64,000 bases of DNA from a phage: NCBI GenBank assembly GCA_025829515.1, contig GCA_025829515.1_4865.1. One strand, given 5' to 3'. The translations under genes and the position numbers were made by a program. The number at the start of each line of letters is the position of its first letter. Position 1 is the first letter of the stretch. Shown in pieces: positions 1-25,499 of this stretch. The notes beneath the pieces were generated by a model. The model saw only the letters and a program-made list of their open reading frames with translations, was not told where the DNA came from and searched no databases.

Positions 1-1
1 G

Positions 2-2203
2 GTAAACGCCAAAGTTTACAACTCCATGGTGGAGCAATTAACCGGAATCACCAAAGAAATCAAAGAGTTAATTAATGGTGAGACCTTATTAACTGACGCC
101 ACTACCGAAGTTCGTCGTAAATGGTTTACGTTAATGTCAGAATCTGATCTGACGTACGTTGTTGGTTGCTATCGACGTTTGCGTAAACTCGCTTCCAGTT
201 TAAGTGGGGCCATTGAGCACACCGGCCGTAAAATCGGTGAGGCAAAAATGCGCGTGGTGGACGATGAAGAAGATCGTGCACGTTTGGAAGTTCGTTTGAA
301 AGAACTCGATGCTGAGCTTCAGGAATTAAACCGCACAATTGAAGCGAGACCCGGTTTAGATAATGCCGTTTCGGTTGATAGTATCCGGAAACGCATTGCT
401 TCGTTGCAACCGGCTGTAAAACTCATTATGGAACGTTATGGCGTTCTGCCTTCTGACGAACTGATTAACGAGTTTCAAAGTCGTGTGGTTGCCTGGCGTG
501 AGCAAGCTGCCTCTGCTGAAACTGAATGCAACATGTACAATAAAGAGTTGTCACAGCTACTGGATGAGGAGTCGCGTCAAGCGTATCTGATGCGCAACCA
601 TACCGGTCTAAAACAAACAATCGACAGCTTAAAACAGGAACTGGCAACGTTCCAACAGAACTGGATGTTCCCGGCTCTGTTTGAAGGTACCCGCATTGAT
701 GTGGATAGCATTCAGAACGCGTTAAACGATGCCTGTAACTGGAATTTACCGTTGTCCATGCATCTGGACCAGTTAAAGACAACAGATCGCCTGGGAGCGT
801 TAGAGAAGCGTTTACAGGGTATGGATTTAACCTCTGCGGGTCTATCTGAAAAGCTGCAACGTTGTGAGAATGTGCTACACGGTTTATACCACGACCGTCA
901 ACACTTCTTAGAAACTGCAGAAGTTGATTGTCCACAGTGTAACCACCGTTTCCGTCCTGGGATTCGTAAGTCGTTACCTGAAATTGAAAAGGCCATCAAC
1001 GATAATGAAGGTTGGAAGAAGCAGCTGAAAGACGAAATGGATAGTCTTTTGCGTGACCGCAAAGAGATTGAAGAGGACGTCCGTAGCTTACGTACGATTC
1101 GCGAAATCGTCATGTCGTATTCCAACCATCCTGTTGTCGGTTTGTTTTTCCGTAAACTGCAGGAGCTGGATATCTTCACCACGGCGCGGGATCGTTATGG
1201 TGCCATTGCACGTGCCTTTACCGAAGAGTTAGATTCGGCCATGATGTATCTGCGTCAATCAGCGAAGCTTGCAACAGCGGAACGGGAATGGCAAGAGGCT
1301 GTTGCCGCAGTAGGTAATGTTGATGGTGCGCTGAGCCAGAAAATTGAACATATCCGTTCACAACTGGACGGGGCTAACCGTCGACTGATAGAATACCGCA
1401 GACAAGCCAATGAGCTGGAACGCGAAACCACCCAACTGCAACAAACCAAAGAAGCAATCGAACGTTTCCAAAAAGGCTACGAACATCTGGTATCGGAAAT
1501 GAACATCTCCGTTAACAACGTCGTGGTTCGCGAGTTGTTAAACCGACGCGAAGCGAAGCTCGATGCGTACACTTCCGCTCGTGAACGGTTTCGTCAAATG
1601 GAAGGGGCTATTGCACGTTTAGCGGAATTGGAAAAAGAGCAAGCTGAGTTGCTCAAAGAACACCATCATGCCAGATTGATTATCAATGCCGTCTCACCCG
1701 AAAAAGGATTATTGCGTCGTTACTTTTATGCTGCGATTACCCGCATCATGGATTTAATGAATCGGTATATCGAAATGGTGTGGGCATATCCGATGCAGGT
1801 TATTCCATGCGATCTAACCGACGGGGATTTGGATTATACTTTCCCGGTGCGATTAAAAGACCATGAAGAACTGGTGCCGGATGTGAAGAAAGGTTCAAAA
1901 GCACAGCGTATCATTTTCAACATGATGTTTCGTTTAACGGCGTATAAAGCACTTGGTTTACAAAATTATCCTTTGTTATTGGATGAACCATCTGAAGGCA
2001 TGGATGAAGAACACAAAAACCGATTAGTTAACTTCATTAAATCGTTGGCGTTGTCGGGAGAGTTTTCTCAATTGCTGGTCGTTTCGCATGAAGCGGAAGT
2101 TCATTCTAAACTTAACGAAGCCACCTACTGTGTCGTAGAACCAGAAGGTGTAACGCTTCCACCGGTGTATAACGAAGGGGTAATAATCAAATATGCATCA
2201 TAA
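2..2203 (+). CDS. Rad50/SbcC-like coiled-coil ATPase, C-terminal portion (5' end lies outside the window)
   Basis: Frame is open to the window edge; long coiled-coil-like region; CPQC zinc-hook motif at 928-939; Walker B LLLDEP near 1969-1989 and H-loop VVSHE near the C-terminus. Confidence 0.7.
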   Translation, partial: VNAKVYNSMVEQLTGITKEIKELINGETLLTDATTEVRRKWFTLMSESDLTYVVGCYRRLRKLASSLSGAIEHTGRKIGEAKMRVVDDEEDRARLEVRLKELDAELQELNRTIEARPGLDNAVSVDSIRKRIASLQPAVKLIMERYGVLPSDELINEFQSRVVAWREQAASAETECNMYNKELSQLLDEESRQAYLMRNHTGLKQTIDSLKQELATFQQNWMFPALFEGTRIDVDSIQNALNDACNWNLPLSMHLDQLKTTDRLGALEKRLQGMDLTSAGLSEKLQRCENVLHGLYHDRQHFLETAEVDCPQCNHRFRPGIRKSLPEIEKAINDNEGWKKQLKDEMDSLLRDRKEIEEDVRSLRTIREIVMSYSNHPVVGLFFRKLQELDIFTTARDRYGAIARAFTEELDSAMMYLRQSAKLATAEREWQEAVAAVGNVDGALSQKIEHIRSQLDGANRRLIEYRRQANELERETTQLQQTKEAIERFQKGYEHLVSEMNISVNNVVVRELLNRREAKLDAYTSARERFRQMEGAIARLAELEKEQAELLKEHHHARLIINAVSPEKGLLRRYFYAAITRIMDLMNRYIEMVWAYPMQVIPCDLTDGDLDYTFPVRLKDHEELVPDVKKGSKAQRIIFNMMFRLTAYKALGLQNYPLLLDEPSEGMDEEHKNRLVNFIKSLALSGEFSQLLVVSHEAEVHSKLNEATYCVVEPEGVTLPPVYNEGVIIKYAS

Positions 2204-2384
2204 AGGTTGGCGCTTATGGGCTTGGTGGGGTTTTCAGTTCCTTCAGTTTGTTGTGATGGTACTGTACCTCTCCTTTTGTGCAACCGTAGTGGTTATCGCT
2301 GCGGTCGTTTATTTAGCTGCTGCTCTTAAAGAACGTCTGTTCGACACGCGTTGTGAGTGGCGAGATATAGGGGAACGGACATGA
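2193..2384 (+). CDS. small hydrophobic membrane protein (63 aa)
   Basis: ORF with a long hydrophobic stretch (FVVMVLYLSFCATVVVIAAVVYLAAAL); first of a coupled small-ORF cassette. Confidence 0.4.
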   Translation: MHHKGWRLWAWWGFQFLQFVVMVLYLSFCATVVVIAAVVYLAAALKERLFDTRCEWRDIGERT

Positions 2385-2485
2385 TTGAAGGTATCGTATT
2401 AACCGGTATTGCACTGTGGTTGATTCGTGGTGCCTGGGGTTGGATTATCCGCACGAAAGGATGGGCGTTCCATGGCAACACGTAA
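2381..2485 (+). CDS. small transmembrane peptide (34 aa)
   Basis: ATGA overlap with upstream ORF; AGGGGA ribosome-binding site 7 nt upstream; single hydrophobic helix; below the ORF-track size cutoff. Confidence 0.35.
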   Translation: MIEGIVLTGIALWLIRGAWGWIIRTKGWAFHGNT

Positions 2486-2675
2486 ACCACGTCGCTTAAA
2501 ATCTTGGGCGGTTGTGATAATGCACACTGTAGTGTTGCTGGGTATTTTCTTGTCTCGTGCCACGCCTGCCTTTTGGGGCTTAGTTGTTTTGGTGTTCTTA
2601 GAAGGGGTTTACTTCGGTAATCTGTGGAGCAAGCCCCCGCGTTTAAGGGACCCGGCTTATGACAGTCGTGAATAG
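2472..2675 (+). CDS. small membrane protein (about 67 aa, two hydrophobic segments)
   Basis: Internal ATG at 2472 preferred over the track start 2427; basic N-terminus followed by hydrophobic segments. Confidence 0.4.
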   Translation: MATRKPRRLKSWAVVIMHTVVLLGIFLSRATPAFWGLVVLVFLEGVYFGNLWSKPPRLRDPAYDSRE

Positions 2676-2790
2676 TGTCAACGCGGCGATGATTGCAACG
2701 GGTGCGTATGACGGTGCCACATGGACAGATGTTGGTATCACGCTTATCATTTGCGCAATCGGAGCGTTTGTAGCAACATGGTTATTTTAG
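2659..2790 (+). CDS. small transmembrane peptide (43 aa)
   Basis: AAGGGA ribosome-binding site 8 nt upstream of ATG 2659; hydrophobic C-terminal half; overlaps neighbours. Confidence 0.35.
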   Translation: MTVVNSVNAAMIATGAYDGATWTDVGITLIICAIGAFVATWLF

Positions 2791-2885
2791 TGAAATGGGT
2801 TGGGTGTATCGTCTGTAGCCTGATACTAGGAGCGGGCGCATACGCCCTAGGCGCAATCCTTGCATTGACGCAAGGTTGGTTTTAA
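2790..2885 (+). CDS. small hydrophobic peptide (31 aa, GTG start)
   Basis: GTG overlapping the upstream TAG stop (translational coupling); almost entirely hydrophobic; no independent ribosome-binding site. Confidence 0.25.
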   Translation: MKWVGCIVCSLILGAGAYALGAILALTQGWF

Positions 2886-2903
2886 CAGGAGGGTAATTAC
2901 GAA

Positions 2904-3182
2904 GTGGGAGAAACGTCATGTAACAGTGAAACAGTCTCTGATCCCGTGGTCGTGGGTTCAGGGGCGGCCGAGCCAACCCGGCGTATCGTTCTTTCGGGCG
3001 TGGGGATGGCTATAGGGTCTTCAAAGAACCTTCTAGCAGACATCGCGGAAGTCTGCGGGCCGGATGATTTTGCAGTTTCACGTACAGTCGGGGAAGACTG
3101 GCGTGGTAATCAGAAGCGCCATGAGCGAATGTGGCGACGGAAGGTTACCTCAGCATCGCAGCGTTTTCAACGACGTTGTTGA
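2904..3182 (+). CDS. hypothetical protein (GTG start), in a GC-rich patch
   Basis: AGGAGGG ribosome-binding site upstream of GTG 2904; composition atypical for the window, so coding status uncertain. Confidence 0.3.
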   Translation: MGETSCNSETVSDPVVVGSGAAEPTRRIVLSGVGMAIGSSKNLLADIAEVCGPDDFAVSRTVGEDWRGNQKRHERMWRRKVTSASQRFQRRC

Positions 3183-3301
3183 TCAAAGACACGGTTCCGA
3201 TAGAGAACTGGTCTTTACCTGCAGCGGTATACACCGCTAAGCTTTACCGGTAAACTTAAGAAAACACAAACGCAATTCTTCGTTACTCGCTTTCATCGCA
3301 G

Positions 3302-3817
3302 GTGAAAGCTCACTTAGGAATTCAGCTCATGGCCGAAATTGTCATTCTTTCCTCATCCTCAGATTTAACGGAAGCACAAAATAAACAGCTGTTGGGGCTG
3401 CATTATAAATTTCTGAACCACCAACGTACCATACTCCATATCGAAAAAGGTGAGATTCCGAACCTCACTCTGGAGAAACTGTTGGCGGGGAACCGTGCCT
3501 GCGTTGCTCTGGAAGGGGGCACCCCTGTTGGTTACTGTTTGTATCGCGTAATCGCTGGGGTTCTGAAGATTCGTACGATGTTCGTGTCCGAAATGGCACG
3601 CCGTCGCAAAACGATGACGCAGATTTTTGATGCGCTTGATGTGAATGAGCAGTTCACCAGTGCGCATGGGGGAATATACGCTTGCCAGGAAGCTGGTATT
3701 GCGTTCTTTACCGCTCGCGGTTTTGACAAGACCGTCTCTACAGACGGACAATGGCTTGAATTTAAGAAGCAGGTTCCTGCGGAAGCAGATGAACCTTTAA
3801 GGACTGCGGTAGCATAG
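3302..3817 (+). CDS. hypothetical protein (weak acetyltransferase-like resemblance, unverified)
   Basis: ORF in + strand gene array; alternative ATG at 3329. Confidence 0.45.
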   Translation: MKAHLGIQLMAEIVILSSSSDLTEAQNKQLLGLHYKFLNHQRTILHIEKGEIPNLTLEKLLAGNRACVALEGGTPVGYCLYRVIAGVLKIRTMFVSEMARRRKTMTQIFDALDVNEQFTSAHGGIYACQEAGIAFFTARGFDKTVSTDGQWLEFKKQVPAEADEPLRTAVA

Positions 3818-3887
3818 TCCTGTTTTAGCACTCCTTACGATTATGCCTCACTATGAGTGGGGTATTTTTACGCGAGGAGTGCTATTT

Positions 3888-4106
3888 ATGTTTCACCGTC
3901 CTGGGTTTTCAGCTTTAAACACCGATGTCTGTTGGGCTGAGTACGAGCGGGTGAAGGAGTTCTTACCCGTAAATCCTAAACACATCAACGTGGGTACTAT
4001 CGGGCGTGTTGCGTTCGATGATACTCCGCTGAGTACGTGTATTAAAGCAGCGCTTGGTACGCTGCCTGAGCCTCACCACCACGACTGGGAGGCAACTTTA
4101 CCCTAA
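3888..4106 (+). CDS. hypothetical protein
   Basis: GAGGAG ribosome-binding site 8 nt upstream of ATG 3888 (track start 3843 is in frame upstream). Confidence 0.4.
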   Translation: MFHRPGFSALNTDVCWAEYERVKEFLPVNPKHINVGTIGRVAFDDTPLSTCIKAALGTLPEPHHHDWEATLP

Positions 4107-4117
4107 GGAGCATTAAA

Positions 4118-4540
4118 ATGGTTACCGCTATTCGCGAAACAAAATCACTATACGATCATTTATCAGAAGAAGAAACAGCCTTATTCTACGACCTGTTACC
4201 TGAAACCAAAGCAAACGTTCAGTGGTGGTTACGTTTAGCGCTACGTGATAAAGTTGGGGAAACGCCGGTTAGTATTCTCGCGCACACGTTGGACATGACG
4301 CCCATGATTGAAATCGCGATTACCCGCCCTAAATTCTGGCGGCCTGGTATGGTGCGTGAGGCGTATCTACTCCAACGCTTAGGTGTTGACCCGGAGAAGT
4401 GTTGGCGTAAGATGGACGACCATCGCTACCGTGAAGAAATTACGAATAGCCTCAACACTATGTTGGCAATGAAACGGCTCGGTATCGAACACGAAGGTTT
4501 CGAGTCAGCGGTAAAAGCCTGGGTGAAAAGGAATAGCTAA
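4118..4540 (+). CDS. hypothetical protein
   Basis: TAAGGAG ribosome-binding site upstream of ATG. Confidence 0.6.
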   Translation: MVTAIRETKSLYDHLSEEETALFYDLLPETKANVQWWLRLALRDKVGETPVSILAHTLDMTPMIEIAITRPKFWRPGMVREAYLLQRLGVDPEKCWRKMDDHRYREEITNSLNTMLAMKRLGIEHEGFESAVKAWVKRNS

Positions 4541-4789
4541 ATGCAAAAAACAATCATCGGAATAACGGTTGGTTCTTTCTGTGGCTTCCCTACCCCACAA
4601 ACAGAACCCCAATATTTGGGCGCAGGCAAACCTGACCCGGAAGTCCGTAAGTTGCGCGAAGAAGCAAAAGCCAGAGTTCTTACTGAGCTGGAATCGTTGC
4701 TTCAGTCTCCGGTTATTTCACAATGGGGTATGGCAATAGATGTCACTCGAACTGATCGACGAGGCCGTTATCTCCCACGACTTGTTTAA
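4541..4789 (+). CDS. hypothetical protein
   Basis: ORF immediately following the previous stop; overlaps next ORF by 50 nt. Confidence 0.4.
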   Translation: MQKTIIGITVGSFCGFPTPQTEPQYLGAGKPDPEVRKLREEAKARVLTELESLLQSPVISQWGMAIDVTRTDRRGRYLPRLV

Positions 4790-5240
4790 CGCGCCTGAGC
4801 GCTTCAAGGTCGTTACAGTTAACTGCGTTGGTGCAATGGGAAGGGGCATTGCCTTGGCGTGCCGAGAACGCTTCCCATCGCTTTATAATGACTATCGCCA
4901 GAAATGCCGTAAAGAGCAAATCGTTATCGGTGAGGTCTATTGTTATCCTGAGGAAGGGGTAATACTCCTTCCTACTAAAACCCATTTTCGCTATAAATCG
5001 CAGATTTACTATGTCACGTCCGGCATTGATGCGCTGGCGCGACTAGGGGAAGACTTAGAAGGAGGGATTGCGATACCACCCCTAGGGATGGCTAACGGTT
5101 GGTTACGTTACCATGAGCGATTGGAAATCTTTATACACTTACAGAAACGACTACAGCACACGGAGCAGACTTATCGATTCTATTTACCGGACACCTTGCT
5201 GAGGGAAGCAGAGAAAATCATCCCAAATAGTTTCAAATAG
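4740..5240 (+). CDS. macro-domain-like protein (putative ADP-ribose binding or processing)
   Basis: N-terminal VVTVNCVGAMGRGIALA and later IAIPPLGMANG motifs resemble the two macro-domain signature regions, with about 86 aa spacing. Confidence 0.45.
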   Translation: MSLELIDEAVISHDLFNAPERFKVVTVNCVGAMGRGIALACRERFPSLYNDYRQKCRKEQIVIGEVYCYPEEGVILLPTKTHFRYKSQIYYVTSGIDALARLGEDLEGGIAIPPLGMANGWLRYHERLEIFIHLQKRLQHTEQTYRFYLPDTLLREAEKIIPNSFK

Positions 5241-5258
5241 ATATTATCATCAGGGCAC
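5234..5258 (+). promoter_or_regulatory. conserved phage promoter-like element (core AGATATTATC)
   Basis: One of five related intergenic copies, each upstream of a + strand gene. Confidence 0.45.
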
Positions 5259-5339
5259 ATTACAAAGGAGCACAATGCCGTCCGCGCCGTCTTCCCGGAT
5301 TGGGAACGGAAAAGTATAAATCCGTTTGGAGATACATCC

Positions 5340-6062
5340 ATGTTTCGCACCATTTTATTTCTTCTGGTAGCAATGACTACGTTCAACAGCAACGCTTCTT
5401 ACCAGACCACCAGTAACAAACACCAAAAAGAATTCGTCCTTATCCAGGACCAGTTCAATGAGATTAAACCTCTCATCGTCACCGCATCTCGAAAACAAGG
5501 CGTACATGCCGGGATGCTCGCGACCACCATTTATCGTGAATCCCGTTTTAATAAAAACGTGGGTAAGAATAAATCGAGCAGTGCTAGTAGTGTTGTCCAA
5601 ATGACGACAGGCACTAAACGCTCCATGATACGTCTGTATGGGAAACAACTTAACATCCCAAAGAATGCGGACCTTAATAAACCGAAGTATGCTGTACAGC
5701 TTGCTGCCGTTTACATGAAACACATCGAGGATCATCTGACAAAACAACTCAAACGCAAGCCGAGCACAGCCGAAATCGCTTTAGGCTACCGCTTCGGTGA
5801 GGGTGCTGCTGTTGCGATGATTAAAAAGAAATCACCGGTCGGGAAACGCTGGATGGCCAGCTACCGAAAAGACGCAGCATTCTACGGTGCGAAAATGACA
5901 CCACCGAAAGCTGAAACACGTCAGCTTGCTTTTGCGAAGGAAGACCGCGACCAACGCGTCGCTGAGCTTCAGAAAATCTGGGATACGCTGTACACCAAAA
6001 TATCACCTGCGGCCGGTACATTACTGGCAAATAACACTATCATGAAAGGAGCATTGCTTTGA
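5340..6062 (+). CDS. secreted lytic transglycosylase-like protein (SLT domain with N-terminal signal sequence)
   Basis: Hydrophobic N-terminus MFRTILFLLVAMTTF; catalytic-type motif YRESRFN followed by SSASSVVQMTTGT. Confidence 0.65.
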   Translation: MFRTILFLLVAMTTFNSNASYQTTSNKHQKEFVLIQDQFNEIKPLIVTASRKQGVHAGMLATTIYRESRFNKNVGKNKSSSASSVVQMTTGTKRSMIRLYGKQLNIPKNADLNKPKYAVQLAAVYMKHIEDHLTKQLKRKPSTAEIALGYRFGEGAAVAMIKKKSPVGKRWMASYRKDAAFYGAKMTPPKAETRQLAFAKEDRDQRVAELQKIWDTLYTKISPAAGTLLANNTIMKGALL

Positions 6063-6652
6063 CACTCGTAACACGCCCCTGGTATCCAGGTCTTAAAACA
6101 GCCGCACAAATCACCGCCAAAGACGTTTACGAACTGATTCGCGCGGGTGCGGAACACGTTCAAACCAATCCGAACTACGTTGAGCGTCCTATCGGTGAAG
6201 TCGATGGGGAAGCTGTCGAAGCACCTGTCTACGTTGAGTACGGCGAATGGTTCGCAGAGAACCACGGTTTCTACGACGCGTTAAACGCGGCGTTTGGTGA
6301 TGACGAAGACGAAGGTATCGAATTCGACTGGAACGTTAATCTGGCGCTGATGTGGATTTGTGGTTTACGTCCAGCAATTAACGAAACCGAAGCAGGCTTC
6401 GTGCTGACGTGGCGACAGTCGGCGGGTTACGATAAAGAACTCGACTTCAAACAGGCGTATATGGATGTGTCGATTGCACTGCAGAAACTGTTCTTCGGCG
6501 ATCGTGCTTTCTGCCAGCTCAGCTGGTTGACCATCCTGGAAAAACTGGCAACGTGCCACAAACTGTGGCGAGCAGAAGATGCCCCAGAACATCTTTTCGT
6601 GCTCGAATATGCAGTGGTACCGAACCAGCCGTTCTTTGAGGCCGAAGCGTAA
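6059..6652 (+). CDS. hypothetical acidic protein
   Basis: ORF overlapping upstream stop; followed by hairpin terminator. Confidence 0.55.
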   Translation: MTLVTRPWYPGLKTAAQITAKDVYELIRAGAEHVQTNPNYVERPIGEVDGEAVEAPVYVEYGEWFAENHGFYDALNAAFGDDEDEGIEFDWNVNLALMWICGLRPAINETEAGFVLTWRQSAGYDKELDFKQAYMDVSIALQKLFFGDRAFCQLSWLTILEKLATCHKLWRAEDAPEHLFVLEYAVVPNQPFFEAEA

Positions 6653-6657
6653 TTAAC

Positions 6658-6690
6658 GGTCAGACCTTCGGGTCTGACCACCTTTTATTT
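6658..6690 (+). terminator. intrinsic terminator hairpin
   Basis: GGTCAGACC-TTCG-GGTCTGACC stem-loop followed by a T-rich tract. Confidence 0.6.
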
Positions 6691-6703
6691 AATTCTTGGG
6701 TGT

Positions 6704-6970
6704 GTGTTCGTGAAACGTTTAATAAATTTTCTCTACTGGATGGAGAAACGCTATAGCCACAACATTCCGATGATGTATAGTTTGTTATTCTCCACGGTAA
6801 TGTTGGTAATCGGTGCGATCGTCGCACATCTGATGGAACTCACGTCCCCATGGGCGCAACTCTTTCTTACCATCTGGATGTTGTTCTCAGGCTACCACAT
6901 ACGTGGTTTCATAACCCGATTCTTTCGCTGGCGGAGTACCTGGCACGTCTTTAATTCCGACCGTAACTAG
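6704..6970 (+). CDS. small membrane protein
   Basis: Two hydrophobic segments; start codon uncertain (GTG 6704 or downstream ATG). Confidence 0.4.
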   Translation: MFVKRLINFLYWMEKRYSHNIPMMYSLLFSTVMLVIGAIVAHLMELTSPWAQLFLTIWMLFSGYHIRGFITRFFRWRSTWHVFNSDRN

Positions 6971-8221: not shown

Positions 8222-8845
8222 TTAATTTGTTAACCCGTTATCTTTCAGGATTTTCAACATCGCATCATTCAACGCCTGCAGTTCTTGATTCTGCTTAGTG
8301 AGTGTTGCAACTTGTTCTGTCAGAGGAACCTGCTCACGGATTTTGGCTTTACGCACCGCTTCCATTTGCAAGTGTTCTTCTTCCGTCACCGTCCCTTCGT
8401 AATCCATCGATGTGATGTCCACACGTGCATCGATTCCTAAACCGCGTTCTAAGATGCTTTTCAGGTCGTTCGTTAGCAGTGTGACATCGACGTATTCGGG
8501 TATTAATGCCAGGTCAATAACCACCACATTGCGTCTATAATTTAACCCATTCAGTCCAGGATACGTCTCAATGTACGTATCAGGCAACTCGTAGACTTGA
8601 CCGTCCCTCGACTTTAATGTTACAATCGAGGCTTCGACATTAGCGTCGCTGATATAGTCGTCACGAGTTAGGCCGACAGGTTTATAATACTTGTTATAAA
8701 CGTCAATATTATTACGTTGGAGTTTCGGAAAGTTCTGTACCGCGTCAACACGGTAAATCACTTTATCTGGCAACGTATAAGGTGCCTTAACCTTGAACAA
8801 CCCCTCAAGGTTAACCTGAGGCGTGTTAGGCAACAGTTGTGCCAT
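8222..8845 (-). CDS. hypothetical protein (C-terminal coiled coil)
   Basis: Minus-strand ORF ending at the bidirectional terminator. Confidence 0.55.
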   Translation of the reverse strand: MAQLLPNTPQVNLEGLFKVKAPYTLPDKVIYRVDAVQNFPKLQRNNIDVYNKYYKPVGLTRDDYISDANVEASIVTLKSRDGQVYELPDTYIETYPGLNGLNYRRNVVVIDLALIPEYVDVTLLTNDLKSILERGLGIDARVDITSMDYEGTVTEEEHLQMEAVRKAKIREQVPLTEQVATLTKQNQELQALNDAMLKILKDNGLTN

Positions 8846-8855
8846 TTAACCCTCC

Positions 8856-10235
8856 TTAGGCTTCTGGCTCTGCCGCAGGGACATCCCAAACAGCTTTGCG
8901 GGCCAAGACACGATACTCCACGTTATCGAATTCGAAGACGTAGAAGTAAACGTTAGGATCGACGTCGTCTACGAGCTTCACGATATCCAGCGGGGTGGAA
9001 TGTGGGTGATACTCTTCCGCTGCGATTAACGCCTGGAAGAACAAGTCCAGCCACTCGGTGGTTTTCTTCGACATTCTCGCAATATCTGCATTGTTAGTGC
9101 CGATTAATGCGTAGTCGGGAATCGTATCGTGCAGGGTCGTTTTGCGTGAATCGTTTTCAGGGCCTGCGATAACTACAGCGTTTAGTGATTTATAGATGGA
9201 CGGTAAATCCGTTACATCGGTAGTTGGAGTTGAGATTGCTCCACTATTTTTTTCCGTAATGGTTTGAACAGTCCACTCCCCAAATCGGGAGATTGCTTTG
9301 ACCCAGAAATCATATGGGAGAATCGGCGAGTATAATGCCGCAACGTCTTCCTCATTTGGAATCCCACGAATTGACCAACCGGGAACAATTGTGAACTTGG
9401 TGGTCGTAAAGATTTCTGGGAACACCTTGACACCCAACGCCACAGTAAAACTGGAGTTTGCCAAAATGTAATCACGCAACGCTTGTTTAATCCTGCTCGG
9501 GTTACGACCCGCGCGTCCGTAGATGATAGCCGACATCGGTATCGGTAAGGTGGAATCAAAGTCTTCCTGGTCGTGCCAAGTATAGATGTTAGTAATCAGG
9601 CTAGTGTACGGATAACCGTCAGCTAATTCGTTAATCTTATTATGGTGATCCGGAAGGTTGAACCCTTCCATTGCCTTTTCGACTACAGATTTCACAGCCA
9701 AGAAAGTATCAACCGGTAATATCGGCATTTGGACTTCAATTTCAAATCCGGTATAGTCCTGATTGAAATCTTCATCAGCAAACCAGAGAATAATCTGGTT
9801 ATTCACATCAGATGGGTCTTCGACTTTATCTGCTGTGGTTTCAAGTTTCCAACTGACCCAACGTGGGAACCAGTTACTGTTAGTCTGAATCATCGCGCCA
9901 GACTGAACACCGCTGATGACACTATTAAATTGCCCCAACAGCAAACGCTGGAATTCAACTTCGTCGTTTCTTAAGTTGCCCAGGATAGACTGTTGGTAGA
10001 TCCATTGGGAAACAGTAAGAACGTGGTCGCTAAAGACGGCCGGGGTCTTAATAGGCAACTCGTCACGTTTAGAAGTAAAAGCAACCAGTTCCACCTGCAG
10101 ATTTTCTTTAGTAAAATACTGCTTGCTTTTAGCGAACGAATATGACAGCTCAGACAACTCACCTACCGGAGCGGTGTTGCCAGGGCCATTATCAATCAGA
10201 GCCGCTATTTGAATAAAGCCTTGTAAATCATACAT
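8856..10235 (-). CDS. hypothetical protein
   Basis: Long minus-strand ORF immediately upstream of 8222-8845. Confidence 0.6.
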   Translation of the reverse strand: MYDLQGFIQIAALIDNGPGNTAPVGELSELSYSFAKSKQYFTKENLQVELVAFTSKRDELPIKTPAVFSDHVLTVSQWIYQQSILGNLRNDEVEFQRLLLGQFNSVISGVQSGAMIQTNSNWFPRWVSWKLETTADKVEDPSDVNNQIILWFADEDFNQDYTGFEIEVQMPILPVDTFLAVKSVVEKAMEGFNLPDHHNKINELADGYPYTSLITNIYTWHDQEDFDSTLPIPMSAIIYGRAGRNPSRIKQALRDYILANSSFTVALGVKVFPEIFTTTKFTIVPGWSIRGIPNEEDVAALYSPILPYDFWVKAISRFGEWTVQTITEKNSGAISTPTTDVTDLPSIYKSLNAVVIAGPENDSRKTTLHDTIPDYALIGTNNADIARMSKKTTEWLDLFFQALIAAEEYHPHSTPLDIVKLVDDVDPNVYFYVFEFDNVEYRVLARKAVWDVPAAEPEA

Positions 10236-14325: not shown

Positions 14326-14351
14326 TGAGATAGATATTATCTACAGGGACG
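14326..14351 (+). promoter_or_regulatory. conserved phage promoter-like element (TGAGATAGATATTATCTACAGGGAC)
   Basis: Contains near-palindrome AGATA-T-TATCT; upstream of gene 14377. Confidence 0.5.
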
Positions 14352-17082: not shown

Positions 17083-17828
17083 TTTGCTTTCAGGGTCTTG
17101 AGGCGATCACCGGTTACGTTCAGGCATTCTGTCAGTTCATTAATCTGTTTCATAAACAGTCCGAACAGCTCAACCCAGTCAGCACCCATGTCAGCCATTT
17201 TCACTAACTCTGCCGCCACATTAGGATGGACTTGTGAATTAGAGATAATGTCTACAGAGACGTTGATGCTTTCAACTGTACGGTCAATACCTTTCTGGAG
17301 TTTCTTAGTCACTTCCAGGTTCAGCGCTTTGGCACGATTAAACGCAACGTCAATCTCACCTGCACTGTGGTAGGTCTTTTCAATCGCACGCTGGTCGATC
17401 ACGTTGTTGGTATACGACTTCGCCAGTTTCTCAACCAGATCTTTTGGATTGATATTTTTCAGCGGGTAGTTCAGGTCTTTGAACTTAAACCCAATCGGCA
17501 GAGTTAACATGCCCAGGTCATGGGTCATCGCACCGAAACGTTTATCGATGGGTGTTAAAACCCCTTCCTGAATCTTCTGGAGCACAGCCCATACAGATTC
17601 CAACCGTTCTATGTGGTCCATCACATACGTGTTGAAGCCCGGAGGTACGGGTACAAGCATTCCGGTAAAGTTTAAAAACTTCTCTTGCTGCATCCACTTG
17701 GACACATCAGACATGTCGTCATAGGTGGTCAGCGCGAGTTCCTGTTGAGAGCCGCTAAAGGCTTTAGGCAGAATCGTGGATGCTTTGGCAACAAAGCCCG
17801 ACAACGCTGCAAGTGGATTAACATTCAT
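17073..17828 (-). CDS. hypothetical protein
   Basis: Minus-strand ORF ending inside the bidirectional terminator. Confidence 0.55.
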   Translation of the reverse strand: MNVNPLAALSGFVAKASTILPKAFSGSQQELALTTYDDMSDVSKWMQQEKFLNFTGMLVPVPPGFNTYVMDHIERLESVWAVLQKIQEGVLTPIDKRFGAMTHDLGMLTLPIGFKFKDLNYPLKNINPKDLVEKLAKSYTNNVIDQRAIEKTYHSAGEIDVAFNRAKALNLEVTKKLQKGIDRTVESINVSVDIISNSQVHPNVAAELVKMADMGADWVELFGLFMKQINELTECLNVTGDRLKTLKANKK

Positions 17829-17926
17829 TCTATCAACCTCGAATATATAAGGGATTGGGCTACATAGTAAGTCTTTTACGTATCACCCAAACCTTATGTA
17901 CGAGAACTGCATAAAGGTAACATCTG

Positions 17927-18226
17927 ATGAGAATCAAATTACTGACTCGCGCTTTAACCTCTCGTATCGAACCTGAGATTTACACCACCCCGACGAAGAA
18001 GAATACCGATGGTAGTCCGATCGTGGTTGGTAAAATCCTGAACGTGACCACTCGTGCTGATGGTCAGCGCGTTCTGGAAATCGAAATCGACGAACGTAAC
18101 CGTAACCGCTTCAAGGGCATTTCTAATATCAACCCTAAAGATGACAGTCAAGTCACCGAGTGGGCAGAAATGCATTTCGAAGTTTGGCATAAACGTCGTC
18201 TGTTACTCCCACTGAAAAAACGCTAA
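17927..18226 (+). CDS. hypothetical protein
   Basis: ORF with AAAGG ribosome-binding site. Confidence 0.5.
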   Translation: MRIKLLTRALTSRIEPEIYTTPTKKNTDGSPIVVGKILNVTTRADGQRVLEIEIDERNRNRFKGISNINPKDDSQVTEWAEMHFEVWHKRRLLLPLKKR

Positions 18227-18241
18227 TTGACGGAGCGCTAA

Positions 18242-19735
18242 ATGGCAGGTCCAGCTAAACAAGTCATGGGTGAAGTGATTCGCCCTCGTTTTAACGTATA
18301 TACCATCATGGACCACGCTCTCGGTAACTACGAGCGCGGGGAAGATGGCTTGTACTACCTCAACGGTGGTTTTGCCCACATCATGGGCTTCGCAGGTCGT
18401 GGGAACACTTTTAAGTCTACCTTATTAGACTTCTGCATTTTCATGATTCTGCAACGTTATAATGCAGCCTGGGGATCGAAATACGATACCGAAGTTACGG
18501 CAGCATTAAGTCGTCTGGAAACAGGGTACATTTCCGCAGCGAAAGCAAACGGATTAGAAGTATCACCAACGGGCGGCGTGCTGGACCTGATCCACGAAGG
18601 TCGTTACAACATGGTTGGCTCGGATATCATGGCAGGTGAAGAATATTACTCTGCCTATATCCGTGACGAAGTCGAAAAACGTTTCAAAGAGTATATGGCT
18701 GGTAAGGCACGCGAAACACCATTCCCTGACCCAATCCGTCGCTCTGCGAAAAAGATTCTCGACCCGTGGTTGTACTCGATTGACTCCCTGTCCGAATGGC
18801 ACACTTCTTCCCTGGAAGAGAAACATGCCAAATCAGAAGTCGGTGATTCTGAACAGAACATCCTGAACGCCCACGATGCCCTGCAGAAATCGAATATGAT
18901 GAGCCGTTGGCCGTCTGCGTTTGCGCGTGGTGGTTTCTATATGGGCTTCGTTGCTCAGTTGGCCGACGATGCGGGTAAAGCAATGGCGGCAGGTGGCCGT
19001 GGTGGACCGAAGGCGAACGGTAAACTGTTGGACGATGCAGGCGATGATCTGAAGTTTGCGGGTATCCCGCGCCGTCAGTTGTCGTTCTTAACTAACTCCC
19101 TGCTGGTTGCAACCAAGTCTGGTGAGTTGAAGCAGGATCAGACTTACAACGCGAAGACCGGTGTAAACGAAGAGAAATACCCGACTGCGCGTTCGAAAGC
19201 AATGAATGCTTCGGTGAACGACCTGAAAGAAATTGTTTTCACGCAGTACCGTGCGAAGGGTGGTCACACAGGCGTTAAGTTCAAAATGGTCTTCTCGCAG
19301 GAGATGGGTCTGCTTTATCACCTCTCTCTGTGGCATTACCTGAGCGACACACTGAAAGATGAATGGGGCTACAAACGTAGTGGTGCTAACTATACCCTCG
19401 ATTTGCTACCTGGTACATCTTTCATGCGTACCACGATTCGCGACATGTGTGACAGCAACCCGCGTTTGCGCCGGGCGTTGGAAATCACCGCCGCACTAGC
19501 GTACATGCAGAATAACTACCACCGACTGGAAATGAAGTACCATCTCTCACCGGCGGAGCTTTATAAAGTTATCGACGAAAAGTGGGACTGGAATGAAATT
19601 CTGGACAATACAGTGGAATACTGGATGTTCAAGGATCAGGAAGTCAAAGGTGGTAAGCGTTGCTTAACAGCAATGTCATTACTGGCGATGGCCGTGGATG
19701 GTCTGGAACCTAAGTTCTTGACTAAGAAGAAATAA
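18242..19735 (+). CDS. hypothetical protein (possible deviant P-loop GFAGRGNTFKST)
   Basis: Long ORF with GGAG ribosome-binding site; motif noted but unverified. Confidence 0.6.
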   Translation: MAGPAKQVMGEVIRPRFNVYTIMDHALGNYERGEDGLYYLNGGFAHIMGFAGRGNTFKSTLLDFCIFMILQRYNAAWGSKYDTEVTAALSRLETGYISAAKANGLEVSPTGGVLDLIHEGRYNMVGSDIMAGEEYYSAYIRDEVEKRFKEYMAGKARETPFPDPIRRSAKKILDPWLYSIDSLSEWHTSSLEEKHAKSEVGDSEQNILNAHDALQKSNMMSRWPSAFARGGFYMGFVAQLADDAGKAMAAGGRGGPKANGKLLDDAGDDLKFAGIPRRQLSFLTNSLLVATKSGELKQDQTYNAKTGVNEEKYPTARSKAMNASVNDLKEIVFTQYRAKGGHTGVKFKMVFSQEMGLLYHLSLWHYLSDTLKDEWGYKRSGANYTLDLLPGTSFMRTTIRDMCDSNPRLRRALEITAALAYMQNNYHRLEMKYHLSPAELYKVIDEKWDWNEILDNTVEYWMFKDQEVKGGKRCLTAMSLLAMAVDGLEPKFLTKKK

Positions 19736-19737
19736 GC

Positions 19738-19765
19738 ATGGGCGGGGCAACCCGCCTGTTTTTTC
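19738..19765 (+). terminator. intrinsic terminator or attenuator inside a + strand gene array
   Basis: GGCGGG-GCAA-CCCGCC hairpin followed by TGTTTTTTCC. Confidence 0.55.
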
Positions 19766-19780
19766 CCCTGAGGATTAGCG

Positions 19781-20056
19781 ATGCGTTATCAGAAAGATAT
19801 TGTAGAGCGTCTGTGTCTGGGTCTCGCTGGTATTAGCCAGGAACTTAGCACCGCGTTCCATAACGAGTTCTCAGCACCGCGACATGCACTGTCTGAATTT
19901 AGTCATCAGGTAAATGCCCATTACGGCAACCTGATTAATGATAAACCGAAGGTTGATGCGGTCGGTGTGCCTGAACACAATGAAGATATCCCGTACTGGA
20001 TTGAAGACCTGGAACGTGTGGTTCTTCCAGTGCTCCGTGAGAGGATGAAAAAATGA
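19781..20056 (+). CDS. hypothetical protein
   Basis: GAGGATT ribosome-binding site. Confidence 0.5.
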   Translation: MRYQKDIVERLCLGLAGISQELSTAFHNEFSAPRHALSEFSHQVNAHYGNLINDKPKVDAVGVPEHNEDIPYWIEDLERVVLPVLRERMKK

Positions 20057-20721
20057 GATTAGACCCGGCACGGCGAAAAAAAGCAGAAGCTTATGCTTTA
20101 CAGTTACTGAACTTAGTTGACCCGACCGGGATTAACGCGGAAGCTGCCAAGCGCGCTTTCTCACGAATGTCTGACGAAGAGTTCAATCGTCTGCGCGAAG
20201 GGTTGCCTGTTTACAACCCAACTGGTGGCAAGGTCAAAATTGACCATATGCGCAATATTAAAATTTGCGAAGCGATGGGACTGAACTTGTGTCAGCGCCT
20301 GTGGCTCACGGAACCGAAAACCGGTATCCTACAGCGTACCCGTTACCCCCATTTAGTCTTCCGGCTACCTGCACGTCGCCAGACGCAGATGCAAGAGAAG
20401 AAAATGGCGGTGGCGAAGAACGATAAAGTCCGCGATAAACTCTCGGGTCAGGTAGTAGGGCCTTCCAAAGCTTCGGGTGTTTCGTTTCCAGAAGCGTACA
20501 TCATGTACTCGGATGGACACGACTCAACGCTCCAGGAGTTCCTGTGGGCGCGTGGTGGTAACGATACGTTACAACGTGCGTTCTATCAATCGCTACGGCA
20601 AACCGGTAAAGGTCGCATCAACCTGGAAGGGGCTGAGCGTACCAGTTCAAAAGCGCCGCGTACATGGTCTTCGTACTTTAAAGCAATGCACATCGGTAAC
20701 AACTTAGGACGCCCGGAATGA
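20053..20721 (+). CDS. hypothetical protein
   Basis: ATGA overlap with upstream gene. Confidence 0.55.
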   Translation: MRLDPARRKKAEAYALQLLNLVDPTGINAEAAKRAFSRMSDEEFNRLREGLPVYNPTGGKVKIDHMRNIKICEAMGLNLCQRLWLTEPKTGILQRTRYPHLVFRLPARRQTQMQEKKMAVAKNDKVRDKLSGQVVGPSKASGVSFPEAYIMYSDGHDSTLQEFLWARGGNDTLQRAFYQSLRQTGKGRINLEGAERTSSKAPRTWSSYFKAMHIGNNLGRPE

Positions 20722-21446
20722 GATTAGGACGCCGTTTCTTAGTCGATATCGACACAATCTTCGATACACGAATTGGTTGGGCGAAAGTGCTGCAGCCTGA
20801 TGTATTAGAGAAGCTTGATTTAGAAGTGTATCGGATGCGGTTCACAGATGCGTGGGCCGAAGTGGTAGGAATTCAGGACTGGAATAAAAAGTTCGCGGAG
20901 CGTGATAAACGCGCGTTGCAGAACGCGCAGCCAACAGAAATGTTGCTTACGCTAAAGAACGAAGTACAGGCAATGTTAATGACGATACAGATGCACGCTC
21001 CTATTGAGCGACCTGTCTTAACGTTTAACCTGTGGCCATACGCTGATCTCGATGATGAAGAACGTCATGCGTTTTTGGAAGAACTGCGTTACTACTATAA
21101 CGAAGTGCAAGTAGACGTCGTTGTTATTCCTCACAGCGATCTTACACCAGGACGACTTGCTTCTGCATGGGACGGTTGGATAATGTACGATTGGTATCCG
21201 TGGATAGAACAACACGCGAACCATTTCCAGAAACCGATTCCGGATTTCACCATTACCCGACCGAGTATGCTGACCAGCGAATTAACGGAAGAAGCCATCG
21301 CGCAAATAAAAAGAGATAAGGTGAACCCCTTTAAGGAGTCCACCCGTTTTCTTGCTCAATACGTCGGTACTGACGTAAAGGACACTGCGCTGTTTAGTCT
21401 TCGTCGTCATCAGCAGGACGACGACTCGCAAACGCAGACGCCATGA
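20718..21446 (+). CDS. hypothetical protein
   Basis: ATGA overlap with upstream gene. Confidence 0.55.
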   Translation: MRLGRRFLVDIDTIFDTRIGWAKVLQPDVLEKLDLEVYRMRFTDAWAEVVGIQDWNKKFAERDKRALQNAQPTEMLLTLKNEVQAMLMTIQMHAPIERPVLTFNLWPYADLDDEERHAFLEELRYYYNEVQVDVVVIPHSDLTPGRLASAWDGWIMYDWYPWIEQHANHFQKPIPDFTITRPSMLTSELTEEAIAQIKRDKVNPFKESTRFLAQYVGTDVKDTALFSLRRHQQDDDSQTQTP

Positions 21447-21864
21447 TCTGGTCAACGTCAATCTTTTCGCCTACTGGTGCCAACTCACCTTCTTTCGGAG
21501 GCCGTACTGCGGCAATCTGTGGGACGGTGGGTTGGTATCCATTATTTAAATCTTCTTCATCGTCGTGACGTTTGATACCAACGCCAGCACGGGTCATTAA
21601 GAAGCCGTTTAAACTGTTGGCCAAATCTTGAGTCGCCTCAGCGCCTTTCTCAGCAGCTTTAATTTTCCGCTTCGTCATGACCTGTTTGTCGATGCCGTTG
21701 ATTAGGCGTTCGATTCGGTCGACGGCTTTTAAGTCTTTGTGTACTTCACCGTCGTTCACCATATCTGTGACGAGCTTAACGCGTAGCTGTTGTGTTTGGC
21801 GGAGAAGCGAATCTTCGTTGTCCACATCTCCGTCGAACGCTTGGTATTTCACTTCTTCGCTCAT
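21394..21864 (-). CDS. hypothetical acidic protein
   Basis: Minus-strand ORF; its 3' end overlaps the convergent + gene by about 53 nt. Confidence 0.45.
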   Translation of the reverse strand: MSEEVKYQAFDGDVDNEDSLLRQTQQLRVKLVTDMVNDGEVHKDLKAVDRIERLINGIDKQVMTKRKIKAAEKGAEATQDLANSLNGFLMTRAGVGIKRHDDEEDLNNGYQPTVPQIAAVRPPKEGELAPVGEKIDVDQIMASAFASRRPADDDED

Positions 21865-21880
21865 GGGATAACCTCATCTC

Positions 21881-21910
21881 AAAAAGAACTCAGACAGATA
21901 TTATCTATCC
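21881..21910 (+). promoter_or_regulatory. conserved phage promoter-like element (AAAAAGAACTCAGACAGATATTATCTATCC)
   Basis: About 24 of 27 positions identical to the copy at 53881-53910; sits in a divergent intergenic gap. Confidence 0.55.
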
Positions 21911-21940
21911 GAGACAACATCTCATAATAGGATAACACCT

Positions 21941-22471
21941 ATGCTTTTTAAATGGCTTTCAACACTCCTGCGTCGTAAGGCTGTAGAAGCTCGCAGACGC
22001 TCTTTGGAGGCTGAGTTTCATAAGAATACCCATAACACCCTGCACAGAGTGATGGTGGGCTTAGAACTCATTACAGAGCCTCTGGAATATAATGGGAAAG
22101 AATACCTTCCTTTTTCATTGCGTGGACAACTCGAATTACGTATTCGAGATTTTGACACGTTGGTGGAGCGATTGGAATTCTTCATTTCTGAGTATAACCG
22201 TGTATCCAGTAGCAACATTCCCAATCAACGTTGGTTAGAGTTGCCTGAGGCAATCGATAGAAAAGGAGAGAGTTCAGAACCACGATGGCTTGATCATTAT
22301 TTCGGTGCATCCGATCCTGAAGTCGCGCGCGATAAACTGCGCACAGTCTTCGCTATGTTAGAACTGTATCAGCGTGCATTTGATAAACAAACACCCGAAC
22401 AGGATACGCTGTTTAATCAAACCGCACATATCTTCCGCGAGTTAGAAGTGATAGTGGAACACTATCTCTAA
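21941..22471 (+). CDS. hypothetical protein
   Basis: ORF downstream of promoter-like element. Confidence 0.55.
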   Translation: MLFKWLSTLLRRKAVEARRRSLEAEFHKNTHNTLHRVMVGLELITEPLEYNGKEYLPFSLRGQLELRIRDFDTLVERLEFFISEYNRVSSSNIPNQRWLELPEAIDRKGESSEPRWLDHYFGASDPEVARDKLRTVFAMLELYQRAFDKQTPEQDTLFNQTAHIFRELEVIVEHYL

Positions 22472-22504
22472 CTTTTAATCTATTCCCTTGTAACAAGGTG
22501 ATGT

Positions 22505-23383
22505 ATGGATGATGAGAAAAAGCCGCCGCTGAATAGCACACGCGAGCAAATTTGGCACGGTACGCCACCGGCGTCAGATTCCAGCTACCCGTTAAGGAAA
22601 GCTTATTGGAATCTGGTTAAGTTGATGGGTATTAGCGACGGGATATGGAAAGACCTTATCCGTCAACATGTCAACGACCCGGAGTATCTGAAACAGTTTC
22701 GTGACAGCAAACTGACCACGATGACCGACCGCGTTAACCGGCTGAACACCTCACTTACGGGTGGTTCGGTACGTAACCTGACAGTCGATTTTACGTGGAA
22801 ACGTTTCATCGAGGGATTAGTTATCCTGGAGATGCAAACGCTAACAGTCACCCTGCTGACTAAGCGGGGAAGCTTTGACACGAAGTGTTTTGTATTCGAC
22901 AGTACGTTTGTGCGTGAGGACTTCATTAAGAACTTACGTAATGAGAACAGGAAGAAACGTAAAGAGCGTTTCGAGCATCCTGCATCTTACGACGTTAACG
23001 AGTATGTCGCGAACATCGACCACACTATCGAACATGTGATGAAGCACATTCTCCTGCGTTTAATCTACAAAGTTATTCGTGGGTATAAAATCGATGGTGA
23101 TAAACTGGAACGGTGGACGACGAACTACGTCAACAACCCTAAGTTGTGCCCAGGCACATCATCCAAACGTGGGGACAGACGAAACAACATGAAACAGGCG
23201 ATGCGTCACACCGAGGCAATCACCTGGCGTTGGTTTCTAATAATCTTACAAGCGCTGGACGTACGTGAGTTCGAAATCACTTTCAAAGTTCGTCATCGTA
23301 GTGGTAGAGAATATGAGGTCAGCGACGACGTTCCGTTAGCGACGTATAGATTCTGGAGTTCCAATGAAACTGAACAACCTTGA
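22505..23383 (+). CDS. hypothetical protein
   Basis: ORF with AAGGTGA ribosome-binding site. Confidence 0.55.
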   Translation: MDDEKKPPLNSTREQIWHGTPPASDSSYPLRKAYWNLVKLMGISDGIWKDLIRQHVNDPEYLKQFRDSKLTTMTDRVNRLNTSLTGGSVRNLTVDFTWKRFIEGLVILEMQTLTVTLLTKRGSFDTKCFVFDSTFVREDFIKNLRNENRKKRKERFEHPASYDVNEYVANIDHTIEHVMKHILLRLIYKVIRGYKIDGDKLERWTTNYVNNPKLCPGTSSKRGDRRNNMKQAMRHTEAITWRWFLIILQALDVREFEITFKVRHRSGREYEVSDDVPLATYRFWSSNETEQP

Positions 23384-24638: not shown

Positions 24639-24647
24639 GGTACCTCT

Positions 24648-25499
24648 ATGTCGAAAGATGAAGGTAAGTTTTTGCGTAGTGCGTTGGAACGTCTACGTGT
24701 CGATGGTGCATCGGTGGATGCTTTGGCGGCCGCTTTTGGGTTTACGTTGCCCGCCTCGGTAGAAGCCACATATCCTGTTTTACGTCCCATCCTACCACCA
24801 GAAGAAAAGGAAGCCTTTGTACGCTATTTACTGCGTATGGGTTACCAGAGTACCTTGGTGGATATCACGCCGTCTACAGACGGTCTGAATCACTTCAACA
24901 TCTATTCGCAGGGGCGAACTGAGATAGGTCGGATGGCGAGTAACTTCTATGCTCGCCCTGGTGAGTATTTTGTTACCCCCCACGGACCTTTCCGGACGCT
25001 CGAAGGTTATTATCATTACCTGCGTATTCTGGATTACTTAATGCGTGAAATTGATAACCGCACTTTGGTGATGGAATTTGATATCATGCGACAGGCAGTG
25101 AACACCTGGCCTGATATTGAGAAGTTGCGTGCACTAGATGGCACCGACTGTATCCGGTTAGGTCGTAATCTGAAAGCGGAAATCTACGGAGGAACCAGCT
25201 ATAAGCCCGGTTCATTTACCCCGGTTACAGAAAGCCGTTTTATCCATGCGCTGGTAAATAAGCTCTTTATACTGTCGGTCGACGGGACTTCGTTAGGTAA
25301 TGTGTTTGCGGAGATTCTGCGGGCACGTATCCCGCTTAAGCATTATTACATGATGCAAGGGCGTAAGATATTCCCGGCACACTGGGACTGGCTACCGAAT
25401 CTGATTGAGATGATAGCTGAACATATCGATCCTGAGGACAGTACGTTTGATCGAACCGAACTTTTGAAGAAACTAGGAATCGATGATGGGACTATTTGA
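24648..25499 (+). CDS. hypothetical protein
   Basis: ORF in + strand array. Confidence 0.55.
   Translation: MSKDEGKFLRSALERLRVDGASVDALAAAFGFTLPASVEATYPVLRPILPPEEKEAFVRYLLRMGYQSTLVDITPSTDGLNHFNIYSQGRTEIGRMASNFYARPGEYFVTPHGPFRTLEGYYHYLRILDYLMREIDNRTLVMEFDIMRQAVNTWPDIEKLRALDGTDCIRLGRNLKAEIYGGTSYKPGSFTPVTESRFIHALVNKLFILSVDGTSLGNVFAEILRARIPLKHYYMMQGRKIFPAHWDWLPNLIEMIAEHIDPEDSTFDRTELLKKLGIDDGTI

Follow-up and report, generated by a model that had tools for sequence, protein, structure and literature searches.

The gene at positions 4740-5240 (+ strand) of the stretch of phage DNA analysed here (contig GCA_025829515.1_4865.1 of NCBI GenBank assembly GCA_025829515.1; all 64,000 nucleotides (nt) are referred to as the window) most probably encodes an enzyme of the AdfM type, built from the N-terminal half of a DarG2 antitoxin, that would counter host DarTG2 by erasing ADP-ribose marks from phage DNA. 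Its product of 166 amino acids corresponds to gp196 of the Salmonella phage SPN3US (SPN3US_0196, AEP84029.1) and to WNT47619.1 of the Salmonella phage SPLA1a, and can be described as an orphan DarG2-like macrodomain. The name AdfM ("anti-DarT factor macro") was given to a family of DarG2-like macrodomains that about half of chimalliviruses encode (Morgan et al., Cell Rep 2026, PMC13309987); its named members are gp104 of PhiKZ, gp108 of PhiPA3, gp83 of Goslar and gp217 of Asesino (PMC13309987).

A sequence-only reading of this DNA had described the product as a macro-domain-like protein, and profile searches, solved structures and the predicted fold all agree with that description. The DarG model of PADLOC matched the protein at E 4.3e-32 (110 bits, profile positions 7-147 of 329), and the NCBIfam antitoxin_DarG model (NF048014) at E 1e-30 (107.2 bits, profile positions 7-150 of 338). 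The Pfam Macro model (PF01661) aligned with residues 25-118 at 21.7 bits, just under its gathering score of 22 (E 2e-4); among the named AdfMs, it also left Asesino gp217 below the cut-off, at 19.2 bits, and placed those of PhiKZ (30.1 bits) and Goslar (24.1 bits) above it. The generic model seems simply to perform weakly on the clade to which the window protein belongs. When the protein was compared with the sequences of the PDB by phmmer, the best matches were the DarG macrodomains of M. tuberculosis (5m3i, E 1.9e-20) and T. aquaticus (5m31 and 5m3e, E 8.7e-19) (PMC5179494), followed by 7omu, a DarTG fusion from Thermosipho africanus.

Structure prediction, which the earlier reading had named as a check, gave the three-layer alpha/beta/alpha macro fold and no sign of a non-macro one. 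The AlphaFold2 model, built from 57 homologues, is a single domain with a mean predicted local distance difference test score (pLDDT) of 93.1 and a predicted template modelling score of 0.89. A Foldseek search of the PDB returned 182 matches at E <= 0.001, nearly all of them macrodomains among the matches listed. First in rank was 5m3e, the T. aquaticus DarG macrodomain with ADP-ribose (E 2.6e-13, template modelling (TM) score 0.76/0.83, root-mean-square deviation 2.2 Å, 32% identity), and behind it came, in order, 5m31, 5m3i, 7omu, TARG1 (TM 0.69, 16% identity), the macrodomains of alphavirus nsP3, Poa1p and SCO6735 (TM 0.60). As judged from profiles and the modelled fold, then, the window protein falls in the DarG/TARG1 class of macrodomains.

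The residues on which catalysis would depend are also in place. Residues of T. aquaticus DarG that contact ADP-ribose or are important in mutational work (PMC5179494) were mapped onto the window protein through sequence alignments, and conservation was followed in a family alignment of 57 sequences. Three segments stand out: the first ADP-ribose-binding region, VVTVNCVGAMGRGIALA (4809-4859, + strand; residues 24-40), the catalytic segment T79-K80-T81-H82-F83 (4974-4988, + strand), and the second, diphosphate-binding loop, IAIPPLGMANG (5067-5099, + strand; residues 110-120). The first and third of these are the stretches that had been proposed from the letters alone as the two macro signature regions, an assignment that stands, since the E-values against DarG speak against chance resemblance. 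Asn28 (codon 4821-4823) aligns with N22 of T. aquaticus DarG and N23 of PhiKZ AdfM, and Lys80 (codon 4977-4979) with the catalytic K80 of T. aquaticus DarG and the catalytic lysine of TARG1; both residues are identical in the window protein, Asesino gp217, Goslar gp83, PhiKZ gp104 and the DarG macrodomains of T. aquaticus and M. tuberculosis. In T. aquaticus DarG, K80A inactivates the enzyme, mutation of N22 lowers its activity, and W83A has little effect (PMC5179494).

Most of the remaining pocket follows the same pattern. T20, T79, H82, G117, N120 and G121 of T. aquaticus DarG are conserved as T26, T79, H82, G116, N119 and G120, K29 is conservatively replaced by R35, and N8 is matched by D14, as in M. 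tuberculosis DarG and PhiKZ. The aromatic character of W83 is kept in F83, and G119 is replaced by A118, an alanine also present in the active PhiKZ AdfM; two positions differ, Q34 (A40) and G122 (W121). Twelve residues are invariant in the family alignment (T26, N28, G31, M33, G34, G36, A38, Y52, T79, K80, G116 and G120). Alignment of the glycine-rich ADP-ribose-binding loops, the other check that had been proposed, showed both loops to be kept, with G31, G34, G36, G116 and G120 among the residues that never vary.

The protein is a macrodomain and nothing more. Both DarG models are covered only over about their first 150 of 329-338 positions, and the protein ends at residue 166. The NCBIfam model carries an equivalog cut-off of 250 bits for the full architecture of macrodomain plus DarT-binding region, and the 107.2 bits of the window protein lie below it. 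The genes around it follow the order SMC/SbcC-like gene, GNAT acetyltransferase gene (3302-3817), three small open reading frames (ORFs) without a family match, macro gene, SLT transglycosylase gene (5340-6062), and no Pfam match to a DarT or ADP-ribosyltransferase (ART) family was found among eight neighbouring proteins. Because the C-terminal DarT-binding half is missing and no DarT neighbour is seen, the gene is, on its architecture, that of an orphan enzyme resembling an antitoxin, with the catalytic half of DarG but without the half that binds DarT.

The same neighbourhood bears on a different idea, namely that the protein erases ADP-ribosylation written by an ART of the phage itself, the two forming a writer/eraser pair. 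Some distant homologues do lie within ART-annotated genes, in Streptomyces and Arthrobacter phages, and ART-Macro fusions of jumbo phages have been noted (PMC7824862). Against such a pair stand the eight neighbours just mentioned and the 255 annotated features of SPLA1a, among which no ART, NADAR or other NAD-linked enzyme is named, a weak negative for an ART given that most of these genes are annotated as 'hypothetical'. We regard a writer/eraser pair as hardly credible.

Orthology to the named AdfMs brings the protein into a family with published function. Asesino gp217 is 70% identical to it over 166 of 166 residues without a gap, and the Asesino locus has an SMC/SbcC-like gene, an acetyltransferase gene, small ORFs, the macro gene and a transglycosylase gene in equal order. 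PhiKZ gp104, translated from the coding sequence given in PMC13309987, is 35% identical (E 3e-25), with its N23 opposite N28, and the product of the Goslar gp83 locus is 30.7% identical. With the PADLOC DarG model, the 110 bits of the window protein fall between Goslar (77 bits) and PhiKZ (133 bits), close to Asesino (115 bits). On the strength of that score and of the homology and synteny with named members, we file the window protein as an orthologue of AdfM. What this family does was described in 2026, and one of its named members is a syntenic orthologue with 70% identity to the window protein.

What has been reported for the family is directly relevant. PhiKZ gp104 strips DarT2-made ADP-ribose from a DNA oligonucleotide, and a mutant of the conserved active-site asparagine (construct gp104 N23A) is weaker (PMC13309987). 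PhiKZ AdfM rescues cells from DarT2 toxicity; AdfM-deficient PhiKZ loses 3-6 logs of titre on hosts that express DarTG2, and PhiPA3 mutants lose titre too (PMC13309987). Fusions to GFP place the AdfMs of PhiKZ, PhiPA3 and Asesino in the phage nucleus, and the authors state that bacterial DarG2 macrodomains reverse ADP-ribosylation of DNA exclusively (PMC13309987). The window protein resembles these AdfMs in being a stand-alone DarG2-like macrodomain (about 160-186 amino acids in the family) of a nucleus-forming jumbo phage, with the same catalytic asparagine and lysine and a loop of the LGxANG type. It differs from the tested members in having F83 in place of tryptophan and W121 in place of glycine, in the host genus and import machinery, and in a small ORF that overlaps the 5' end of the gene.

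By analogy with these homologues, the following course of events may be proposed. During infection, DarT2 of a host DarTG2 system would place ADP-ribose on thymidines of single-stranded phage DNA, in TNTC motifs, and replication and genome packaging would be impaired. The phage protein would hold the ADP-ribose by its two glycine-rich loops and Asn28, and Lys80 would attack the bond between ribose C1'' and thymine, so that ADP-ribose is freed and the DNA is unmodified again. Its action would be catalytic only: the mark would be erased, and the toxin would not be expected to be sequestered, because the DarT-binding C-terminal domain is absent. The macrodomain of DarG needs no other part of the protein to work as an antitoxin, and its catalysis depends on K80 (PMC5179494); AdfM acts in like manner during phage infection (PMC13309987). 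In a nucleus-forming phage, import of the protein into the phage nucleus, the site of the DNA, would be expected. We infer the substrate (thymine-linked ADP-ribose on single-stranded DNA), the protection against DarTG2 and the nuclear localisation from homologues.

Several observations weigh against this proposal. Four DarG contacts are changed in the window protein (W83 to F, G119 to A, G122 to W and Q34 to A), two of them offset by the alanine of the active PhiKZ enzyme and by the small effect of W83A in T. aquaticus DarG. The orthologues in Asesino (gp217, 8707-9204 of its locus) and phiEaH2 have a histidine at the position of N119 (GMAHG rather than GMANG), which means that the ADP-ribose contact equivalent to N120 is not strictly kept in the clade. 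For any Seoulvirus orthologue, activity, protection against DarTG2 and import would be carried over from homologues, and the main text of the AdfM paper makes no mention of SPN3US, Seoulvirus or Salmonella (PMC13309987). Nuclear import is set by co-evolved surface residues that are recognised by PicA and cannot be read from sequence (PMC13309987). As to the host, a tblastn search of plasmids gave no Salmonella among the ten most frequent genera or the 30 matches listed, the matches being mostly macro genes of Bacillus, Zymomonas and Rhizobium, and a limited look at the literature found no case of DarTG2 in Salmonella hosts. Finally, uracil-linked ADP-ribose in RNA is a further substrate of enzymes of the DarG/TARG1 class (PMC13036486), and for this reason the substrate range may exceed DNA.

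Some of these points would suit a TARG1-like hydrolase whose main substrate is ADP-ribosylated RNA (for instance uracil-linked) or proteins modified by other ART toxins or defence systems of the host, with a secondary role on DNA or none. TARG1 is the next solved fold behind the DarG entries, and uracil-linked ADP-ribose on RNA is hydrolysed by T. aquaticus DarG, SCO6735 and TARG1 alike (PMC13036486). To these points may be added the several changed residues that line the DarG pocket and the fact that DarTG2 was not shown in the host genus in the limited look at plasmids and literature. Nevertheless, the window protein is clearly nearer to DarG than to TARG1 in sequence and fold (about 30% versus 16% identity and E 1e-13 versus 4e-07 in Foldseek), and T. 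aquaticus DarG is less efficient on uracil-linked than on thymine-linked ADP-ribose (PMC13036486). The homologous PhiKZ AdfM has a strong phenotype that is specific to DarTG2, and DarG2 macrodomains are said to counter ADP-ribosylation of DNA only (PMC13309987). A TARG1-like role on RNA or proteins is, in our view, unlikely.

Database labels suggest another role. SPN3US gp196 is listed as "hypothetical protein", the SPLA1a copy as "phosphatase" and other homologues as "Appr-1-p processing protein", and PHROG 335, itself labelled 'phosphatase', matches the window protein at E 1.3e-29. Together with weak phmmer matches to yeast Poa1p, and with a survey of jumbo phages that suggested such roles for phage Macro domains (PMC7824862), these labels would point to a housekeeping ADP-ribose-1''-phosphate phosphatase (Appr-1-p, Poa1p-like) that clears by-products of RNA 2'-phosphotransferase or RNA repair, or degrades soluble signals derived from ADP-ribose. 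The labels are inherited and are not tests of function. The Poa1p matches have E-values of 0.05-0.13 and cover residues 21-59 only, about 40 residues, and in Foldseek Poa1p ranks 28th with a TM score of 0.63, to be compared with E 1e-20 and TM 0.76-0.83 for DarG. The catalytic lysine of the DarG/TARG1 class, Lys80, is invariant, and experiments on the family indicate de-ADP-ribosylation of DNA (PMC13309987). Such a phosphatase is therefore very improbable, and with it the option of RNA repair or generic ADP-ribose processing, which the sequence-only reading had kept beside counter-defence, loses ground. Its first suggestion, counter-defence by reversal of ADP-ribosylation, gains support from alignments and from analogy with AdfM, and can be narrowed to a putative DNA ADP-ribosylglycohydrolase of the DarG2 type that is orthologous to AdfM.

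Read as an AdfM, the window protein can be set beside several other ADP-ribose-processing and anti-DarT proteins. With DarG2 of the DarTG2 systems of T. aquaticus and M. tuberculosis (PDB 5M31/5M3E/5M3I) it shares the macrodomain class, the equivalents of the catalytic N22 and K80, and the ADP-ribose pocket; unlike DarG2, it has neither a C-terminal DarT-binding domain nor an adjacent darT gene, and it is encoded by a phage and would oppose the system rather than form part of it. AdfN (PMC11825919), another orphan antitoxin-like enzyme of phages, likewise clears the phage's own DNA of the ADP-ribose added by DarT, but AdfN, from T4-like phages, has a DarG1-like NADAR fold, removes guanine-linked ADP-ribose made by DarT1, and is not homologous to the window protein. 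AdfA and AdfB are other anti-DarT factors; AdfB of ICP1, also not homologous to the window protein, appears to neutralise DarT by direct interaction and not by catalysis. TARG1 (C6orf130) and SCO6735 belong to the same macrodomain subclass, use the same catalytic lysine mechanism and can both hydrolyse thymine-linked ADP-ribose. In contrast to the window protein, they come from cells, act on protein or RNA and have other roles, and their similarity to it is lower.

The 5' end of the macro gene is shared with a small upstream ORF (4541-4789, + strand) of 82 amino acids and no Pfam match, whose 3' end runs 50 nt into the macro gene in a different frame. Its counterpart in Asesino, an unannotated ORF of 99 amino acids (8457-8756 of its locus; 43% identity, E 7e-15), overlaps the macro gene there in the same way. 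Across three phages, the overlapped ~40 nt of the macro gene are near-invariant in DNA, and the remainder is about 75% identical. This pattern is consistent with dual coding or with translational coupling. One might go further and propose that the AdfM of the Seoulvirus/Erskinevirus lineage, with its pocket changes (W83 to F, G122 to W and the histidine of Asesino) and its overlapping ORF, has a different substrate range or a coupled partner. The range could extend, for example, to uracil-linked ADP-ribose on RNA or to marks from a DarT-like enzyme that modifies a different base; the partner could be the small-ORF protein itself, translationally coupled and modulating activity or nuclear import. 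We consider this distinctly unlikely, somewhat less probable than the TARG1-like role discussed above and a little more probable than a phosphatase.

Other features of the neighbourhood deserve brief mention. The GNAT gene (3302-3817, + strand) has borderline Pfam scores and lies about 0.9 kb 5' of the macro gene. Its position is kept in SPN3US, in Erwinia phages and in an Enterobacter 'plasmid' described below, and at least three more acetyltransferases are found elsewhere in SPLA1a. Beyond the SMC/SbcC-like gene, a region of 1.1 kb (2204-3328) holds very short ORFs only, several of which look hydrophobic or membrane-like by eye; in SPN3US, the equivalent region is annotated with four tiny genes of 40 to 67 codons.

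The earlier remark that the gene sits just upstream of a promoter-like element holds as an observation. An AT-rich recurring motif, AGATATTATC (5239-5248, + strand), lies on the TAG stop of the macro gene, at the start of a 99-nt gap (5241-5339) before the SLT transglycosylase gene. Three exact copies occur on the + strand of the window (5239-5248, 14332-14341 and 21896-21905), all in intergenic gaps, and with one mismatch allowed the count rises to 10, where 2.4 +/- 1.6 would be expected. Variants are seen near 11322 and in the gaps 17829-17926 and 53817-53962, all in intergenic gaps 5' of + strand genes. The motif is kept in the Erwinia phages Asesino and phiEaH2, together with the block GGGCAC...ACAAAGGAG...GTCCGCGCCGT. 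Jumbo phages that encode RNA polymerases are known to have phage-specific, AT-rich early-promoter motifs of about 10 nt (PMC7598289), and we infer that AGATATTATC is a candidate early (virion RNA polymerase) promoter element of Seoulvirus. As the element comes after the macro gene, it would serve the transglycosylase gene and not the macro gene; within window positions 1-4740, no copy was found 5' of the transcription unit to which the macro gene itself belongs.

Further searches around this gap gave little. A sigma-70 scan of 3200-6800 found no site within 5241-5339 and a total of six, against 4.6 +/- 2.0 expected, which is chance level; such a scan is uninformative here because chimalliviruses use their own RNA polymerases. 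Among exact k-mers of 10-12 nt from the gap, a single 10-mer recurs in the window, and no 11- or 12-mer does. An ORF of 14 codons behind AAGGAG (5264-5269) in the same gap was considered and dropped, its ATG being missing in Asesino and phiEaH2.

The gene itself is well defined. In the ORF listing of the window, an ATG-started ORF of 166 codons spans exactly 4740-5240 on the + strand, and an in-frame TAG lies directly 5' of it (4737-4739). The later in-frame candidates are a TTG at codon 15 and an ATG at codon 33. The ATG start is unambiguous, given this adjacent stop and the fact that later starts would cut into the conserved N-terminus, the ATG at codon 33 with loss of Asn28. The G+C content of the gene is 47.5%, compared with 48.7% for the window. 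Bases 4000-6000 of the window are 99.7% identical to SPLA1a and 95-99.6% identical to about 30 SPN3US-like phages. Together with the window, SPLA1a and its SPN3US-like relatives belong to the genus Seoulvirus of the family Chimalliviridae, the nucleus-forming jumbo phages, and SPN3US encodes a diverged chimallin homologue, gp244 (PMC9365700).

Shortened macro proteins of 111-152 amino acids are found in the records of SPFM1, 5, 7, 8, 14, 15 and 20 (LR535901, LR535903, LR535904, LR535906, LR535912, LR535913 and LR535917). Natural pseudogenes were considered for these phages and rejected: the records match the window region in 33-34 pieces, as expected of indel-rich assemblies, and from this fragmentation the short proteins are attributed to assembly indels and not to gene decay.

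More distant relatives of the gene were also seen. A macro gene with 64% identity lies in the region 17143-25634 of NZ_CP134650.1, a circular sequence of 222,441 bp deposited as 'plasmid unnamed1' of Enterobacter ludwigii and as non-mobilizable, in which the order GNAT, hypothetical, macro, SLT transglycosylase is that of the window. This entry is probably a jumbo (chimallivirus-like) phage genome that the bacterial isolate harboured or that was assembled along with it. Outside the chimalliviruses, tblastn found DarG-like macrodomains at about 30-37% identity in phiEco32-like podophages of ~77 kb, in Vibrio phage VAP7 and in Streptomyces and Arthrobacter phages; the matches in the last two groups sit in genes annotated as ADP-ribosyltransferases and are possible ART-macro fusions. 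Judging from these matches, phages may use orphan macrodomains of the DarG type in counter-defence more widely than described in the chimallivirus paper.

For the Seoulvirus phages, the value of these findings lies chiefly in annotation. SPN3US gp196 and its orthologues can be relabelled as predicted AdfM-type, DarG2-like DNA ADP-ribosylglycohydrolases, that is, as putative anti-DarTG2 counter-defence genes, and the published picture of AdfM, present in about half of chimalliviruses, is extended to the Seoulvirus and Erskinevirus lineage with its gene order conserved, an extension that raises no new question. It would follow that gp196 is dispensable on hosts without DarTG2. For phage therapy and biocontrol with SPN3US-like Salmonella phages, the assignment predicts that these phages would resist the defence of hosts that carry DarTG2.

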